Below are positions 3,398-23,437 of a DNA stretch of 64,000 nt, one piece after another. The DNA lies in assembly GCF_030384885.1 (NCBI RefSeq), contig NZ_CP128613.1; one strand, 5' to 3'. How positions within the stretch are numbered: the stretch's first letter is position 1; every line of letters begins with the position of its first letter. The notes under the pieces are model-generated. The model was not told the origin of the DNA, made no database searches, and was given only the letters and a program-made list of their open reading frames with translations. The translations under genes and the position numbers were made by a program. This DNA is from Escherichia coli (GTDB taxonomy: Bacteria > Pseudomonadota > Gammaproteobacteria > Enterobacterales > Enterobacteriaceae).

Positions 3398-4632
3398 TGA
3401 TAAGACAACGGGTAGCGGTTGGTTAGTTGTATTACTTTTTGCTCAATATCGGCGCAAATGCCTGCGATATCTGACGAGTTGATGGCGAAAATGATTTCAC
3501 TTATCCAGTCAGCAATAAGCACAAAATCATCCGCCTTCATCCCACGCGTGGTGCAGGCCGCGCTGCCAATACGGACCCCGGAGGTAATCGACGGCGGCTG
3601 CGGATCGCCCGGCAGGGTGTTTTTATTGACCGTGATCCCCGCCAGTTCGAGAAAGTACTCCACCTGTGCGCCGGTTAACCCCTGCGGGCGCAGGTCGATA
3701 ATCCCCAGATGGCAGTCGGTGCCGCCCGTTAACAGCGTCAGACCGCGCTGCGCCAGTTGCTGGCACATCGCCTGCGCATTGTCGATAACCTACCCGGCGT
3801 AACGTTTAAATTCTGGTTGTAATGCCTCGCCAAGCGCCACCGCTTTCGCCGCGATAACGTGCATCAACGGCCCGCCCTGCAAACCGGGAAAGATGGCGCT
3901 GTCGATTTTTTTCGCAAGCCTGGCGTCATTGGTGAGGATCATGCCGCCGCGCGGCCCGCGCAACGTTTTATGCGTGGTGGTGGTGACCACATCAGCATAC
4001 GCCAGCGGCGAAGGAAAACAGCCGCCCGCCACCAGCCCGGCAAAGTGCGCCATATCCACCAGCAAAATGGCATCAACGGCATCGGCAATGCGGCGAAAAC
4101 GGGCAAAATCATAGTGGCGTGGATAAGCCGATCCTCCGGCAATAATTAACCGTGGGCGCTCGCGTAGCGCGATCATCTCGACCTCATCCATATCAATCAG
4201 GCCACTATGGGCATCGACGCCATAGTGAAAGGCGTTAAACCATTTGCCGGATTGATTGACCGGAGAACCGTGCGTGAGATGCCCGCCGCATTGCAGGCTC
4301 ATGCCAAGAATTTTGTCGCCGGGCTTCAGCAACGCCAGATAGACCGCCTGATTCGCCTGGCTGCCGGAGTGAGGCTGCACATTGACGTAACGCGCGCCAA
4401 AGAGCTGCTGCGCGCGGGTTATCGCCAGCATCTCAACCTCATCAATAAACTTACAGCCGCCGTAATAGCGATGCTGGTAATAACCTTCGGCGTATTTATT
4501 GGTTAACACCGACCCCTGCGCCGCGAGAACGGCGGGGCTTACGAAATTCTCCGAGGCAATCAGTTCCAGCGACTGCTGCTGGCGCTGTTGCTCCTGGTTA
4601 ATCAATGCAAAAAGTGGATCGTTATTTATCAT
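3394..4632 (-). pseudogene. serine hydroxymethyltransferase (GlyA-like) paralog interrupted by an in-frame TAG at 3790-3792
   Basis: ORFs 3790..4698 and 3394..3768 are in the same frame; both halves align to SHMT ([17 protein letters not shown]-lysine motif; GITVNKN); the stop sits where GlyA has a Gln in the YQQQV region. Confidence 0.65.
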
Positions 4633-16465: not shown

Positions 16466-16524
16466 AGCGGAAAAGAGCGGCGCGGAGTTAACCAGCCGCT
16501 TTTTTCATACATGGACGTTTAACT

Positions 16525-17133
16525 ATGAAATACAGGCTACTGATCCTCAACCTGCTGGTTTCTGTGCCTGCCTTTGCCTGGCAGCCGCAAACTGGCGACA
16601 TCATCTTTCAAATCTCTCGCTCATCGCAAAGTAAAGCGATCCAACTGGCGACCCATTCCGATTACAGCCACACCGGTATGCTGGTGATGCGTAACAAAAA
16701 GCCCTACGTTTTTGAAGCGGTCGGCCCGGTGAAATACACCCCGCTCAAGCAGTGGATCGCCCATGGTGAAAAGGGTAAATACGTTGTTCGCCGCGTTGAA
16801 GGCGGACTGAGTGTTGAACAACAGCAAAAACTGGCGCAAACGGCAAAACGTTATCTCGGAAAACCGTACGATTTCAGCTTCTCATGGAGCGACGATCGCC
16901 AGTACTGTTCGGAAGTGGTGTGGAAGGTTTACCAGAATGCGCTGGGGATGCGCGTGGGTGAACAGCAAAAACTGAAAGAGTTCGATCTCAGCAACCCGCT
17001 GGTTCAGGCGAAGCTCAAAGAACGTTACGGGAAAAATATTCCGCTTGAGGAAACGGTGGTCTCGCCACAAGCCGTTTTCGATGCGCCACAACTCACCACA
17101 GTCGCCAAAGAATGGCCGCTGTTTTCGTGGTAA
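16525..17133 (+). CDS. yiiX: YiiX family protein (putative lipid-binding hydrolase)
   Basis: 202-aa ORF with signal peptide; recognised as YiiX; position next to metJ matches K-12. Confidence 0.85.
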   Translation: MKYRLLILNLLVSVPAFAWQPQTGDIIFQISRSSQSKAIQLATHSDYSHTGMLVMRNKKPYVFEAVGPVKYTPLKQWIAHGEKGKYVVRRVEGGLSVEQQQKLAQTAKRYLGKPYDFSFSWSDDRQYCSEVVWKVYQNALGMRVGEQQKLKEFDLSNPLVQAKLKERYGKNIPLEETVVSPQAVFDAPQLTTVAKEWPLFSW

Positions 17134-17136
17134 TGG

Positions 17137-17250
17137 ATGATGAAAAAAATAATTCCCGCCGTAGTCTGTTTGTTGCTTTGTAGTTGCACGACCTTTCCGC
17201 AAGCTGTCGCTCCGGCAGGGAAAGATTACGAAAGCCCGCTCCCAGCAAGG
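17137..17250 (+). other. lipoprotein-like ORF fragment running into the ISAs1 element
   Basis: ORF 17137..17514 begins MMKKIIPAVVCLLLCSCTT (signal peptide with lipobox-like LCSC) and then overlaps the 3' end of the transposase gene on the opposite strand. Confidence 0.25.
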
Positions 17251-18480
17251 ACTGACGCCAGATACTTTCTGTCCATGGCTGCTTTTCGCATCTTACGTCT
17301 TAACCCTGCCTTGAATACCTTATCATTCGTTAAAATATTAATAGCGATGTGCCGTATCCCTGAAAATAATTCTGCGGCGTTTCCTCTTCGTATTTTGCAG
17401 TCGTCTTCATTCATTACCACGTCCAGACGCCAGTGCAGCTTATTCTCCACGTGCCAGTGGTTTCGGATTGCTGTGGCGAACTTTTCTGCGGTTAAATCAG
17501 CAGAACTGATATAATATCTGACCGTCATTTCTGGCTCTTTCTTTTGTTCTGCTATTATTGACCGAAAGGAGAATGCCACGCATAATTTCTTCAGTCCTTT
17601 CCATTCAAACGTGAAATCAATAAGTTCATCACGGACATCGCAAACAATATGAAGACGGATTTCTTCTCTGCCGTGACTCTTTTCACTCATTGCGTAACTG
17701 TCATGCTCTGGATTATTTAATTCTTTCAGCGGAAATTTTTCCTCGAAGGCTTTATTTAGCCGCCCCTGGTTTCCTTTTACAGCGAATACATAATCACCGC
17801 CCTGTTTTTGTATCTTCTCTGCAATATCTTTCTGGCAACCCATCGCATCAGTTGTGATGATTTTTCCTTTAATATCCAGCATGTTAAGAAGTTCAGGGAT
17901 AGCTGTAATTTCATTGGATTTCTCATCCGTCCTGATCTGTCCGATGACCAGACTGTGCATTGTTGAGAATGCACTAATGACATGAATCGCTCCCCTGCGG
18001 CGACTCTTGTCATAAGAATGCCGGAGTGTTTTTCCATCAATTGCGATGACGTCTTTATCATCTGAAGTATGGCAATCTCGCATCCAGTTAATAAAGCACT
18101 CGTGAAATTTTGAAGGACTGATACAGGATACAACTCTGGCGATGGTATCGTGAACAGGAATACCATTTTCAAAATCACCATATTGTTTTAAAAAATCGCG
18201 ATGTGCTTCCCCAAAATCCTCTATATGTTCCCAGCCTTCTGCACCAGAAATAACGGCGCAAATAGTCAACAGTAGAATATCCGATAATTTATGTTCCACT
18301 TTCCAGGTTTGTCTGTAATCGGGGATAATAGAAATATGTTCCATCAATTTTTTAAGTTCCATTCTTTTCTCCTTAATTATGTAAGGAGTATTTGATCATG
18401 TATAAGCAATAAAAAAACAGCTTCAGGCAATGAGGAATATCTCAATTTTTAAACATAAAATGCGAATTGTTTAGTACAAA
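17140..18480 (-). mobile_element. ISAs1-family insertion sequence (H-repeat element); ends approximate
   Basis: single transposase ORF filling a segment of about 1.3 kb, typical of H-rpt elements; terminal repeats not determined. Confidence 0.6.
17226..18362 (-). CDS. ISAs1-family transposase (H-repeat-associated protein)
   Basis: 378-aa ORF recognised as the H-repeat (H-rpt) protein found in Rhs elements. Confidence 0.85.
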
Positions 18481-18489
18481 AAAGCAGCG

Positions 18490-19100
18490 TTAAGTGAGTA
18501 GGCCACCGGAACCTCCCCGACAGCCTCTCGCAGAACCGTACGTGAAACTCTCGCTTCATACGGCTCCCGTCAGGCAAACGCGCTTCCTGGTCCTGCTTTC
18601 CAGTGGGCAAACAACTCCGGCTTCTCTTTTGACAGCCTTTCCATTAGCTGACACGCCTTCGTCTTTCTATACCGCAGGGTTTTATATTTCTTTCTCGCCC
18701 ACGCAATCAGCGTCAGATTAATATATCTGCATACTTTCTTCATCGCTGATTTGTGGTATCTCGCGTAATAATTCAGCCACCCCAATATTATCGGATTCAG
18801 CCACTTCGCAATATCTTCGAGACTCATCTCCACCCTGCGTCTGATCCACAGTTTCCTGAGTTTTCCAATCATGCCTTCGGGTTTACTCATCTCACTGTAT
18901 CTCACATAGGATCAGATCTCGTCTGATCGTTCCCCCTGCGCTCACTACCATGGCTCTTTACCACAGCAGCCGGGGTTGTTTGGGACCGACTTCCGACAGC
19001 AGATCCCGGTGGGCCTGCCACCATCTCTTCACAAGCTTATGCTTATTACATGCAAAACGTCCCGTTTTGCATCTTTGTGCCTACGGCACACCGTGATCTT
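18490..19100 (-). mobile_element. 5'-truncated group II intron remnant (maturase C-terminus plus RNA domains V and VI)
   Basis: ORF 18570..18905 carries a maturase-like motif (WLNPIILGWLNYYARY); downstream on the same strand, about 18532-18566, is GAGCCGTATGAAGCGAGAGTTTCACGTACGGTTCTG, which folds as a domain-V-like hairpin. Confidence 0.6.
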
Positions 19101-19111
19101 TCCCTGTCGGC

Positions 19112-19320
19112 ATGTTGACCACTGACGAATGGGGTAGTTACGCTAGAGAGTTACCAAAGGAGAAGCATCTGACTGGTAAGATTTTTACTCAGCATATTGA
19201 GCGTAACAATCTGACCCTGAGAACCCGAATCAAACGTCTGGCCCGCAGAACCATCTGTTTCTCGCGTTCTGTAGAACTTCATGAAAAAGTCATCGGTGCT
19301 TTTATCGAAAATATATGTTC
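19112..19320 (+). pseudogene. IS1-family transposase (InsB-like) C-terminal fragment
   Basis: ORF 19112..19426 contains TDEWGSYARELPK...FTQHIERNNLTLRTRIKRLARRTICFSRSVELHEKVIG, similar to the C-terminal part of IS1 InsB; no N-terminal part. Confidence 0.6.
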
Positions 19321-19395
19321 TACTAATTGGAGTCATCACCCTTCTGATGAGCTTTCCTTGGATGATTACCAGACTGAATACATAGCCAAAGATTT

Positions 19396-19719
19396 TTACC
19401 TCATTCTGCTTTTTTTTCTCAAATGACATATATTATATTTTACATCATATTCATAGGCATATGACATTCCCCCGCCCCCCATTATGTCATTGTGGGTTGA
19501 TGTTGGGCTTTCATAAAAAAATACATCTTTTTTTGAACTAGCATTAATTATATTTACTTTATATATTAAAATATTTTCTCCATCTGGAAATATTTTAGCC
19601 ACACAATATAAAGCAGCCAAATCCGAATTACTTAAAAATATATTGTCATCACTCATAACTCCAGCCATTAAATGACTGGAGACTAAAGCAAGGAAATAAC
19701 AACATTGTATTGCCTTCAT
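19396..19719 (-). CDS. putative immunity protein for the adjacent Rhs C-terminal toxin
   Basis: about 107 aa from internal Met (MKAIQCCYFLALVSSHLMAGV...), hydrophobic signal-peptide-like N-terminus; start codon lies 1 nt after the toxin stop with an AAGGGAG RBS; very AT-rich. Confidence 0.5.
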   Translation of the reverse strand: MKAIQCCYFLALVSSHLMAGVMSDDNIFLSNSDLAALYCVAKIFPDGENILIYKVNIINASSKKDVFFYESPTSTHNDIMGGGGMSYAYEYDVKYNICHLRKKSRMR

Positions 19720-19720
19720 T

Positions 19721-20275
19721 TTAATTACTCCCTTGCCTGATAATTGTAACTCCATTCCCTTTAGCTTTGGGATTATATTTTAGATAGGTGTTATTTGGTG
19801 TTCCCAAGTAACTACTGTATTCTTTTTTTCCCATTCCATTCATATAAGAATTCGTTAAATCTTTGCTTGAAAAATTTAGACTATCATAAACATCATTTTC
19901 TTTTGTTACTTTATTTCCTTTATCGTCAGAGTAAAAACCGTGAGTGTGATAATCGCCTACTCTCTCTGAACCTTCAGGGCATTTTATATTTCGCAAGTCT
20001 ACACTATCATTATCATTTGAACTTATCGGATTCATGGGGAAATATTCACCTTGCTTCTTACATATTAGTCCACCATATTCTTTATTCTCGTTAATTGATT
20101 CTCCATTACACATTGCCAATGCAAATATTCCAATATCATCTATATTTTTTGATTTAAATTCATATAATCCTAATGGATCCATGCCATTCACCGGGCTCAG
20201 CGGATATGTATACAGGTTCCATCCCCCCTTCAGCCCAATCGGATCCTGAGTGATATACCGCCCCTGTAACCGTCC
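19721..20275 (-). CDS. Rhs C-terminal tip: end of Rhs core (DPxGL motif) plus variable toxin domain
   Basis: reading frame encodes ...[35 protein letters not shown] followed by about 145 aa of low-GC sequence with conserved Cys/His (GDYHTHG); DPxGL marks the core/toxin boundary in Rhs proteins; no in-frame ATG at the 5' end. Confidence 0.6.
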
Positions 20276-20664
20276 TCACCGGGAAACAGGTGCTCAAAAT
20301 ACAGGCTTCTGCCGCCGTTATCACTGAGTATCAGAGTGTTATCGCGCAGCTGCAAGCGGATATCCGCAGGCATTTTCCAGCCGGGGCCGAGGCTCCCCAC
20401 CGGCGCGGGCGTTTTTGTCCGGTAACTGCTGTAGGTGCGGGAGAGGATGAACGGCAGCGGGCCGGGCAGGGCAAGGTCGGTTTCGCCGGGAAGGACCTTC
20501 GCACCGAGCAGCGGATTGACCGGATGGCCGGACGTCACCCCGCCGGGGCACACCGAACAGGCCACGCCGGTGGGGGCACCAATACGTACCCCGGCAGAAC
20601 CCTGGACAATGGGGCCACCATACTGCGTCATGTCGCCCTGACGCGCCGCCGGTTTTCCGCTCAT
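20230..20664 (-). pseudogene. Rhs N-terminal (PAAR-like) fragment, out of frame with the C-terminal tip
   Basis: 144-aa ORF MSGKPAARQGDMTQYGGPIVQGSAGVRIGAPTGVACSVCPGG... matches the conserved N-terminus of E. coli Rhs proteins for about 125 residues, then terminates. Confidence 0.7.
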
Positions 20665-20786
20665 CGTAAAATCCTTTTAAAATAAATAAGAACCAGAAGC
20701 CTAGCGCCAGTCAACAACAGGAAATGATAATGAGTTAACACCCCGGAATGTTTCAGAATTTATAAAAGGCAAATTACAGGCACAAA

Positions 20787-20815
20787 AAAAGCGCCGTGCG
20801 GCGCTTTTTTCGGAA
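20787..20815 (-). terminator. rho-independent terminator downstream of rpmE
   Basis: hairpin AAAAAAAGCGCCGTGCGGCGCTTTTTT immediately after the rpmE stop. Confidence 0.65.
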
Positions 20816-20823
20816 ATCCGGTC

Positions 20824-21075
<252 letters not shown>

Positions 21076-21079
21076 CTAA

Positions 21080-23437
<2,358 letters not shown>

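Follow-up and report, generated by a model that had tools for sequence, protein, structure and literature searches.

A lipoprotein-like reading frame downstream of yiiX in Escherichia coli is very probably the 5' remnant of a TIGR02117/DUF2459 gene whose body was replaced by mobile DNA

The open reading frame with a lipoprotein-like start that lies directly after yiiX in E. coli contig NZ_CP128613.1 (assembly GCF_030384885.1) is very probably a dead 5' remnant of an ancestral gene that followed yiiX and whose body was replaced, step by step, by mobile DNA. We analysed a 64,000-nt stretch of this contig, here called the window, in which the locus corresponds to the E. coli metB-metJ-yiiX…rpmE-priA region. 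Judged by its alignment with intact loci, the lipoprotein-like start is the leftover of a known 207-residue lipoprotein gene and thus an ordinary pseudogene remnant; the family to which that gene belongs, TIGR02117/DUF2459, is already annotated. The coordinates of the features are collected in Table 1.

The stub ORF is 125 codons long (17137..17514, + strand) and begins MMKKIIPAVVCLLLCSCTTFPQAVAPAG. Its first ATG, at 17137, follows 3 nt after the yiiX stop codon (17131-17133), and its second, at 17140, is equal to the NCBI-annotated start in the intact orthologue; the call of yiiX itself is also backed by the RefSeq annotation of an identical locus. The earlier note had described a new ORF immediately after yiiX, which is borne out with a start 3-6 nt past the yiiX stop, and had seen its frame run into an opposite-strand transposase gene after about 35 codons, with the ORF start cut off at the ISAs1 boundary. 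The transposase gene is indeed there, but the native part of the ORF already ends at 17215, after 26 codons, and the frame is not cut off at this point: it stays open for 125 codons, past the native end, with codons 27-125 being antisense read-through of the transposase gene. The 125-aa product of this ORF had no match in Pfam or NCBIfam, and its exact sequence was absent from a collection of 15 billion proteins.

The lipoprotein signal that had looked genuine at first reading held up. We applied a lipoprotein rule of the PROSITE PS51257 type, which asks for a basic n-region, an uncharged h-region and the pattern [LIVMFWSTAG]2-[LIVMFYSTAGCQ]-[AGS]-C with the Cys at position 15-35. The rule was computed on protein P0001, whose N-terminus is identical to that of the stub and which passes. 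The stub peptide, MKKIIPAVVCLLLCS followed by Cys, has a K/K n-region, an uncharged h-region and the lipobox L-C-S/C with the cysteine at residue 16 (17 if counted from the first ATG), and it is predicted to be the N-terminus of a lipoprotein precursor, lipidation and cleavage by LspA being read from the sequence. The native part of the ORF keeps both start codons, the complete signal peptide including the lipobox, and 9 mature residues (CTTFPQAVAP).

To identify the source of this native part, we compared positions 17134-17260 with 5426 complete E. coli genomes by megablast. The matches fall into two clearly separate sets on either side of query base 82 (window position 17215): the left part matched the yiiX-downstream region of thousands of genomes, annotated as 'TIGR02117 family protein' in some of them, and the right part matched scattered ISAs1/ISEc1 copies. 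The comparison with other yiiX-downstream regions, which the earlier note had called for, thereby turned up an intact 207-aa TIGR02117 gene at this locus. In strain ECJXMCRH7 this gene (624 nt, WP_000720774.1) lies 6 nt after yiiX and 54 nt before rpmE, and its product reaches 225.1 bits against TIGR02117 (cutoff 131) and 156.9 bits against PF09601/DUF2459 (cutoff 27). Bases 17140-17215 of the window are identical to its 5' end at 75 of 76 positions (blastn E 3.7e-33, tblastn E 1.5e-12), an alignment far beyond chance, and the single mismatch changes the +2 residue from Ser to Thr in the window. The stub begins at the same distance after yiiX as the intact gene and is nucleotide-continuous with it. 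By whole-protein HMM score the stub ORF does not belong to TIGR02117/DUF2459, and the 25-26 residues kept lie upstream of the domain (residues 36-196); the stub is the remnant of a family member, not itself a member.

These results bear on the second possibility raised in the earlier note, namely a fortuitous ORF at the IS end, with the lipoprotein-like peptide arising by chance from sequence at or within the terminus of ISAs1. This is true of codons 27-125, which are indeed fortuitous, but as an account of the lipoprotein-like peptide it is almost certainly wrong. The start and the first 26 codons occupy 79 nt outside the IS, they match a family-assigned gene at the same locus, and left of 17215 the window has nothing in common with other ISAs1 copies. 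Moreover, the N-terminal peptide has homologues, the intact gene being present in 289 E. coli genomes as well as in Citrobacter and Salmonella.

Table 1. Features of the yiiX-rpmE interval in the window (positions in the 64,000-nt stretch)
Feature	Position	Strand	Basis or remark
yiiX, YiiX-family permuted papain-like enzyme (Peptidase_C92)	16525..17133	+	NCBIfam NF007458 355.9 bits, Pfam PF05708 166 bits
5' stub of TIGR02117/DUF2459 lipoprotein gene	17137..17215	+	75 of 76 nt identical to the intact gene (L001:4007-4082)
Tail of the 125-codon ORF (read-through)	17216..17514	+	Antisense to ISAs1 transposase gene; not native coding sequence
ISAs1-family (ISEc1/H-rpt-like) element, main segment	17216..18493	-	PF13808 + PF01609; 97-99% nt identity to annotated copies
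ISAs1 left terminal inverted repeat CAGGGAAAGATTACG	17216-17230		
Intact ISAs1 transposase gene, 378 aa	17226-18362	-	PF13808 115.1 bits, PF01609 108.8 bits
Group II intron remnant	18494..19091	-	15 nt from ISAs1 right end; 5' GTGTG at 19091
ISAs1 right terminal inverted repeat CGTGATCTTTCCCTG	19092..19106	-	Intron lies between it and the rest of the element
IS1-family element, right-hand 234 nt	19107..19340	+	Window 19107-20266 = L002 4618-5777 (blastn); right inverted repeat ends at 19340
Rhs element remnant	19396..20664	-	RefSeq annotation of collinear loci; Pfam; blastn against L005
dsORF-f3	19396-19719	-	
Rhs C-terminal tip (DUF4329)	19721-20191	-	
Rhs N-terminus (DUF6531)	20230-20664	-	
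Right edge of replaced interval, rpmE terminator and rpmE	20777..21036	-	Window 20777-21200 = L001 4638-5061, 100% (blastn)

The element that adjoins the stub carries a transposase with the DDE_Tnp_1_assoc and DDE_Tnp_1 domains of the ISAs1 family and is bounded by terminal inverted repeats, CAGGGAAAGATTACG and CAGGGAAAGATCACG (the reverse complement of 19092-19106), which match at 14 of 15 positions. Its left end was set by aligning the window with three independent ISAs1/ISEc1 copies, located in an O-antigen cluster, beside nrfB and in K-12 RhsC. The aligned copies agree from (G)CAGGGAAAGATTACG onward to the right and have no sequence in common on its left, which places the left end of the IS at 17216 +/- 1 nt and defines the left terminal repeat, as the earlier note had suggested doing. 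Altogether, four independent copies share sequence from GCAGGGAAAGATTACG on, with homology beginning at 17215/17216 in four contexts. Native homology stops at 17215, and the junction between stub and ISAs1 lies between 17215 and 17216.

At the other end, reference ISAs1 copies terminate in …GTGATCTTTCCCTG(G), and in the window this sequence sits at 19092-19106 rather than near position 18500; an uninterrupted right end is present in EC42405 and three other copies. An inverted-repeat search over 17150-18560 did not find the true IS ends because the intron displaces the right repeat. Beyond it, the ISAs1 right end adjoins IS1-internal sequence (position 4618 in the common allele described below). 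A target-site duplication was not found, as the flanks GTCGCTCCGG and TCGGCATGTT differ. Such an absence is expected if one flank was deleted after insertion; it tells how the junction may have arisen and leaves the identity of the element untouched.

The intron remnant gave two Rfam matches, RF00029 at 18493-18568 (-) for domains V-VI and RF01999 at 18905-19022 (-) for D1-D4, and its maturase is reduced to the C-terminal 111 aa, with the GIIM domain kept. Compared with strain 2013C-4282, which has a full-length intron with ltrA, the window intron is internally shorter by 1286 bp, most of the reverse transcriptase/maturase being missing. Strain EC42405 carries the ISAs1 element with identical outer junctions and with the intron absent (…AAGTGATCTTTCCCTG/TCGGCATG). 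The IS1 fragment that follows covers only positions 61-127 of PF03400, the left 530 nt having gone along with 5 nt of the stub. Relative to 14EC029, the Rhs core has a 3238-bp internal deletion at about 20264-20266, which is not a multiple of 3 and leaves two separate ORFs. The intron and Rhs core deletions set the window apart from the otherwise 100% identical 2013C-4282; both could be real or could reflect collapse of repeats in the assembly. RefSeq names the ORF downstream of the rpmE-yiiX Rhs element 'dsORF-f3', a name from the RhsF nomenclature of Hill's laboratory. We considered a paper on EHEC 'RhsF/RhsFI' (PMC7618764) as a source for the locus and set it aside, as it deals with S-loop 44 and contains no mention of rpmE or IS1. 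For strains W and Crooks, Table 6 of the E. coli W genome paper (PMC3032704), the one usable source in our literature search on the background of H-rpt, group II introns and Rhs, lists an Rhs element between b3936 and b3937 (rpmE-yiiX).

A census of the yiiX-rpmE interval across the 5426 complete E. coli genomes revealed four alleles. The most frequent one is the empty K-12-type junction, with 12 nt between yiiX and the terminator (2956 genomes). In 2175 genomes, an 81-nt stub ending …GCTCCGGTAAAC runs into the left inverted repeat of an IS1-family element, followed by dsORF-f3 and an Rhs core gene; this stub is 5 nt longer than that of the window. The intact gene is present in 289 genomes, and the window junction between stub and ISAs1 (…GCTCCGG/CAGGGAAAG) in just two, 2013C-4282 (100% identity) and EC42405 (99.6%). 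In an alignment of three alleles, the shared backbone reads …TCGTGGTAAT on the left side and CAGGCACAAAAAAAGCGCCGTGCGGCGC… on the right, the latter belonging to the rpmE terminator.

In the window, a 3.56-kb island consisting of ISAs1 with the group II intron, the IS1 fragment and the Rhs element stands in place of the gene body. Its right junction is at 20776/20777, where the backbone resumes 7 nt past the stop codon position of the intact TIGR02117 gene. Because the right edge of the island lies beyond this position, the gene body was replaced and not just interrupted. The remaining 548 nt of the gene were found neither anywhere in the 64-kb window nor in any remnant-bearing genome, and the 3' 536 nt are present in exactly the 289 intact genomes and no others of the 5426. 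The earlier note's suggestion that a small lipoprotein gene was disrupted by the insertion was right in that a genuine lipoprotein gene, with homologues in E. coli, Citrobacter and Salmonella, was disrupted; at 207 aa, however, the gene is not small, its body was replaced rather than split, and ISAs1 is secondary to IS1. A simple ISAs1 insertion that split the intact gene would account for a stub ending exactly at the IS inverted repeat, but it would leave the 3' half of the gene beyond the IS and a target-site duplication, and we consider it very improbable. No 3' part and no flanking direct repeats are present, the other end of ISAs1 adjoins the interior of IS1, and 2175 genomes have the older junction between stub and IS1, located 5 nt further in. 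On this comparison of alleles, the simplest reading is that the junction between stub and ISAs1 is a rare secondary event, later than the junction with IS1, and that ISAs1 was not the original disruptor.

The gene is also found at this locus outside the E. coli genomes of the census. Citrobacter werkmanii has the order metL-metB-metJ-yiiX-DUF2459 with the same 6-nt spacing as E. coli, a divergent Escherichia lineage likewise has metJ-yiiX-DUF2459, and in Salmonella the DUF2459 gene directly adjoins rpmE. Because all three have the gene at the locus, we take the intact gene as the ancestral state, and the empty junction and the stub as two losses that arose independently. Salmonella keeps only the DUF2459 gene at the locus, beside an arylsulfotransferase gene.

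Taken together, the alleles point to a stepwise replacement of the gene body. In an ancestor of about 40% of E. coli, the gene would have been truncated at nt 81 at the left end of IS1, with the Rhs element following. In the rare lineage of the window, an ISAs1/ISEc1-like element would then have entered the IS1 of the common allele, and an adjacent deletion or IS-mediated recombination would have taken away 530 nt at the left of IS1 together with 5 nt of the stub, so that the left inverted repeat of ISAs1 came to abut codon 26 and no target-site duplication is present. The group II intron would have homed into the right end of ISAs1 later. As a net result, 548 nt of the gene and 7 nt past its stop were replaced by mobile DNA. 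For the first two steps, the states come from the comparison of alleles, and their order and mechanism are inferred from present-day alleles: the IS1 step may have been an IS1-mediated deletion or a replacement by recombination, and the ISAs1 step an adjacent deletion or a recombination between IS copies.

The surroundings of the interval show some variation of their own. The metJ-yiiX spacer of the window (16466-16524) lacks about 130 bp found in ECJXMCRH7 and 14EC029, and the yiiX allele is 95.4% identical to that of these two strains, with flanking DNA at 98-100%, which suggests that the spacer and yiiX form a divergent or recombinant segment. In both genomes that share the window allele, a gene annotated as Tsx (nucleoside-specific channel protein) adjoins metL (L003:66-926, L011:1-160). 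Upstream of rpmE lies the L31 ribosomal protein leader RF03157 (21043-21095, -), an ordinary and expected feature.

What was lost with the gene body can be judged from the intact protein. A database search with its sequence returned 1221 homologues, all of them DUF2459 proteins and mostly 215-245 aa long. In an alignment of 60 family members, the lipobox cysteine (C16) is at least 90% conserved, H41, W43, H44, H104, N174 and N177 do not vary, and C176 is almost invariant. In at least one DUF2459 protein of the alignment (A5), P0094 from Methylomicrobium lacus, the putative catalytic Cys176 is replaced by Ser (LLNTSNKW). Among 113 homologues, 85 pass a strict lipobox pattern and 104 a relaxed pattern of a hydrophobic stretch followed by [GAS]-C; the 28 turned down by the strict pattern failed on minor points, among them Cys at a position below 15, Trp at -2 and over-long predicted N-termini. 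Inspection by eye found a comparable [GAS]-C motif in 8 of the 9 that fail the relaxed pattern, and none only in P0029. The +2 residue directs lipoproteins in E. coli, with Ser or Thr at this position leading to the outer membrane, and the intact protein is probably anchored there.

An AlphaFold2 model built from the 60 sequences (pLDDT 86.9, pTM 0.85) shows a predicted papain-like core in which His-bearing strands precede the Cys-bearing helix, the order of a permuted fold, with C176 at the N-terminus of helix 176-186. The model agrees with an independent classification of DUF2459 as a newly recognised papain-like family with a Cys-His dyad (PMC10318531). From this we predict that the intact protein is a lipid-anchored, circularly permuted NlpC/P60-type papain-like Cys-His hydrolase, and what was lost would most likely have been a periplasmic thiol hydrolase with a lipid anchor, its activity being predicted from the model. 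YiiX-type enzymes have been proposed to be lipid-peptide amidases (PMC3142127). Pairwise BLASTP of the intact protein against YiiX gave no significant similarity (E 0.76), and the relation between the two is visible at fold level only. A family profile search against PDB sequences gave nothing significant (best E 0.6), a literature search on DUF2459, a family named in just one paper of the library searched, found no experimental activity data, and the genomic context of distant homologues in Pragia, Methylomicrobium and Desulfogranum showed no conserved neighbour and no functional clue. The yiiX and DUF2459 genes of Escherichia and Citrobacter stand in a tight tandem that encodes two exported enzymes of permuted papain-like fold (L001:3392-4630; L012:3386-4729; L010:2386-3627).

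Several properties of the stub would fit a working mini-gene that is coupled to yiiX, exported and lipidated and has a retained or new role. The start codons, the 3-6 nt gap after yiiX and the complete lipobox are all preserved, a 33-aa version is kept in 2175 genomes and is named 'putative lipoprotein' in some GenBank records, that of E24377A (ABV18848.1) among them, and no terminator-like site was found on the + strand between yiiX and 17700. We nevertheless regard such a gene as very unlikely, and the same holds for its supposed products, a 33-aa precursor giving a 17-aa mature lipopeptide in the common allele and a 108-residue chimeric lipoprotein in the window. The two stub alleles share only their first 26 residues, i.e., the signal peptide and 9 mature residues. 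Nothing beyond the signal peptide is conserved between them because the C-terminal parts differ completely, being NGDASN* in the IS1 allele and 99 antisense IS codons in the window. Moreover, 2956 genomes, more than half of E. coli, are without any stub, RefSeq leaves the stub unannotated, and high nucleotide identity is expected of any E. coli spacer and thus gives no evidence of selection. It is highly unlikely that the stub is translated, exported and lipidated, as a 17-residue lipopeptide in about 40% of E. coli and as a chimeric lipoprotein in the window allele, and the chance of a real function is correspondingly slight. The 125-codon ORF is unable to encode the catalytic domain of the family. 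If the chimeric lipoprotein encoded antisense to the transposase were real, gene decay would have given rise to a small envelope protein de novo.

For a dead remnant, the finding matters little beyond annotation: the 125-codon ORF ought not to be annotated as a gene, and the stub ought to be marked as a pseudogene fragment of the TIGR02117 gene. Decay of this sort, brought about by well-known mobile elements, is ordinary in E. coli. The locus offers a worked example of stepwise decay, from the intact gene through replacement by IS1 and Rhs and deletion by ISAs1 to intron homing, with exact allele counts for the series across 5426 genomes. The uncharacterised DUF2459 lipoprotein is related in fold to YiiX, which is encoded next to it, and most E. 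coli do without it: 95% have dispensed with this second enzyme of the tandem, a point that may be mildly useful to enzyme researchers.

Like YiiX/YaeF (Peptidase_C92) and TseH, which are permuted NlpC/P60 papain-like enzymes, the intact DUF2459 protein has a predicted permuted papain-like fold, but it constitutes a separate Pfam family, is reported to have a Cys-His dyad rather than a triad (PMC10318531) and has no detectable pairwise similarity to YiiX. The mobile element shares 97-99% nucleotide identity, the 378-aa DDE transposase and the termini CAGGGAAAGAT…ATCTTTCCCTG with ISEc1/H-rpt (ISAs1 family) of E. coli Rhs loci and O-antigen clusters, and differs from these copies by its missing target duplication and by the intron remnant 15 nt from its right end. 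The chromosomal interval and the collinear arrangement of IS1, dsORF-f3 and Rhs core are those of rhsW7 in strain W and EcolC_4081 in Crooks, whereas in the window the Rhs core carries the 3238-bp deletion and IS1 is cut to 234 nt by the intron-bearing ISAs1. ABV18848.1 (33 aa, E24377A), which represents the common allele with IS1, is a remnant of the same gene with its first 26 residues identical to those of the window stub; it is 5 nt longer (…APVN), and its frame closes after 6 codons within the inverted repeat of IS1, whereas the window stub stops at …AP and its frame continues for 99 codons antisense to ISAs1. Finally, the WP_000720774.1 gene between yiiX and rpmE, as in E. coli C and ECJXMCRH7, has the locus, start, signal peptide and lipobox in common with the stub, and differs in that the window retains only residues 1-25 of 207, with the whole DUF2459 domain gone and with Thr instead of Ser at +2.
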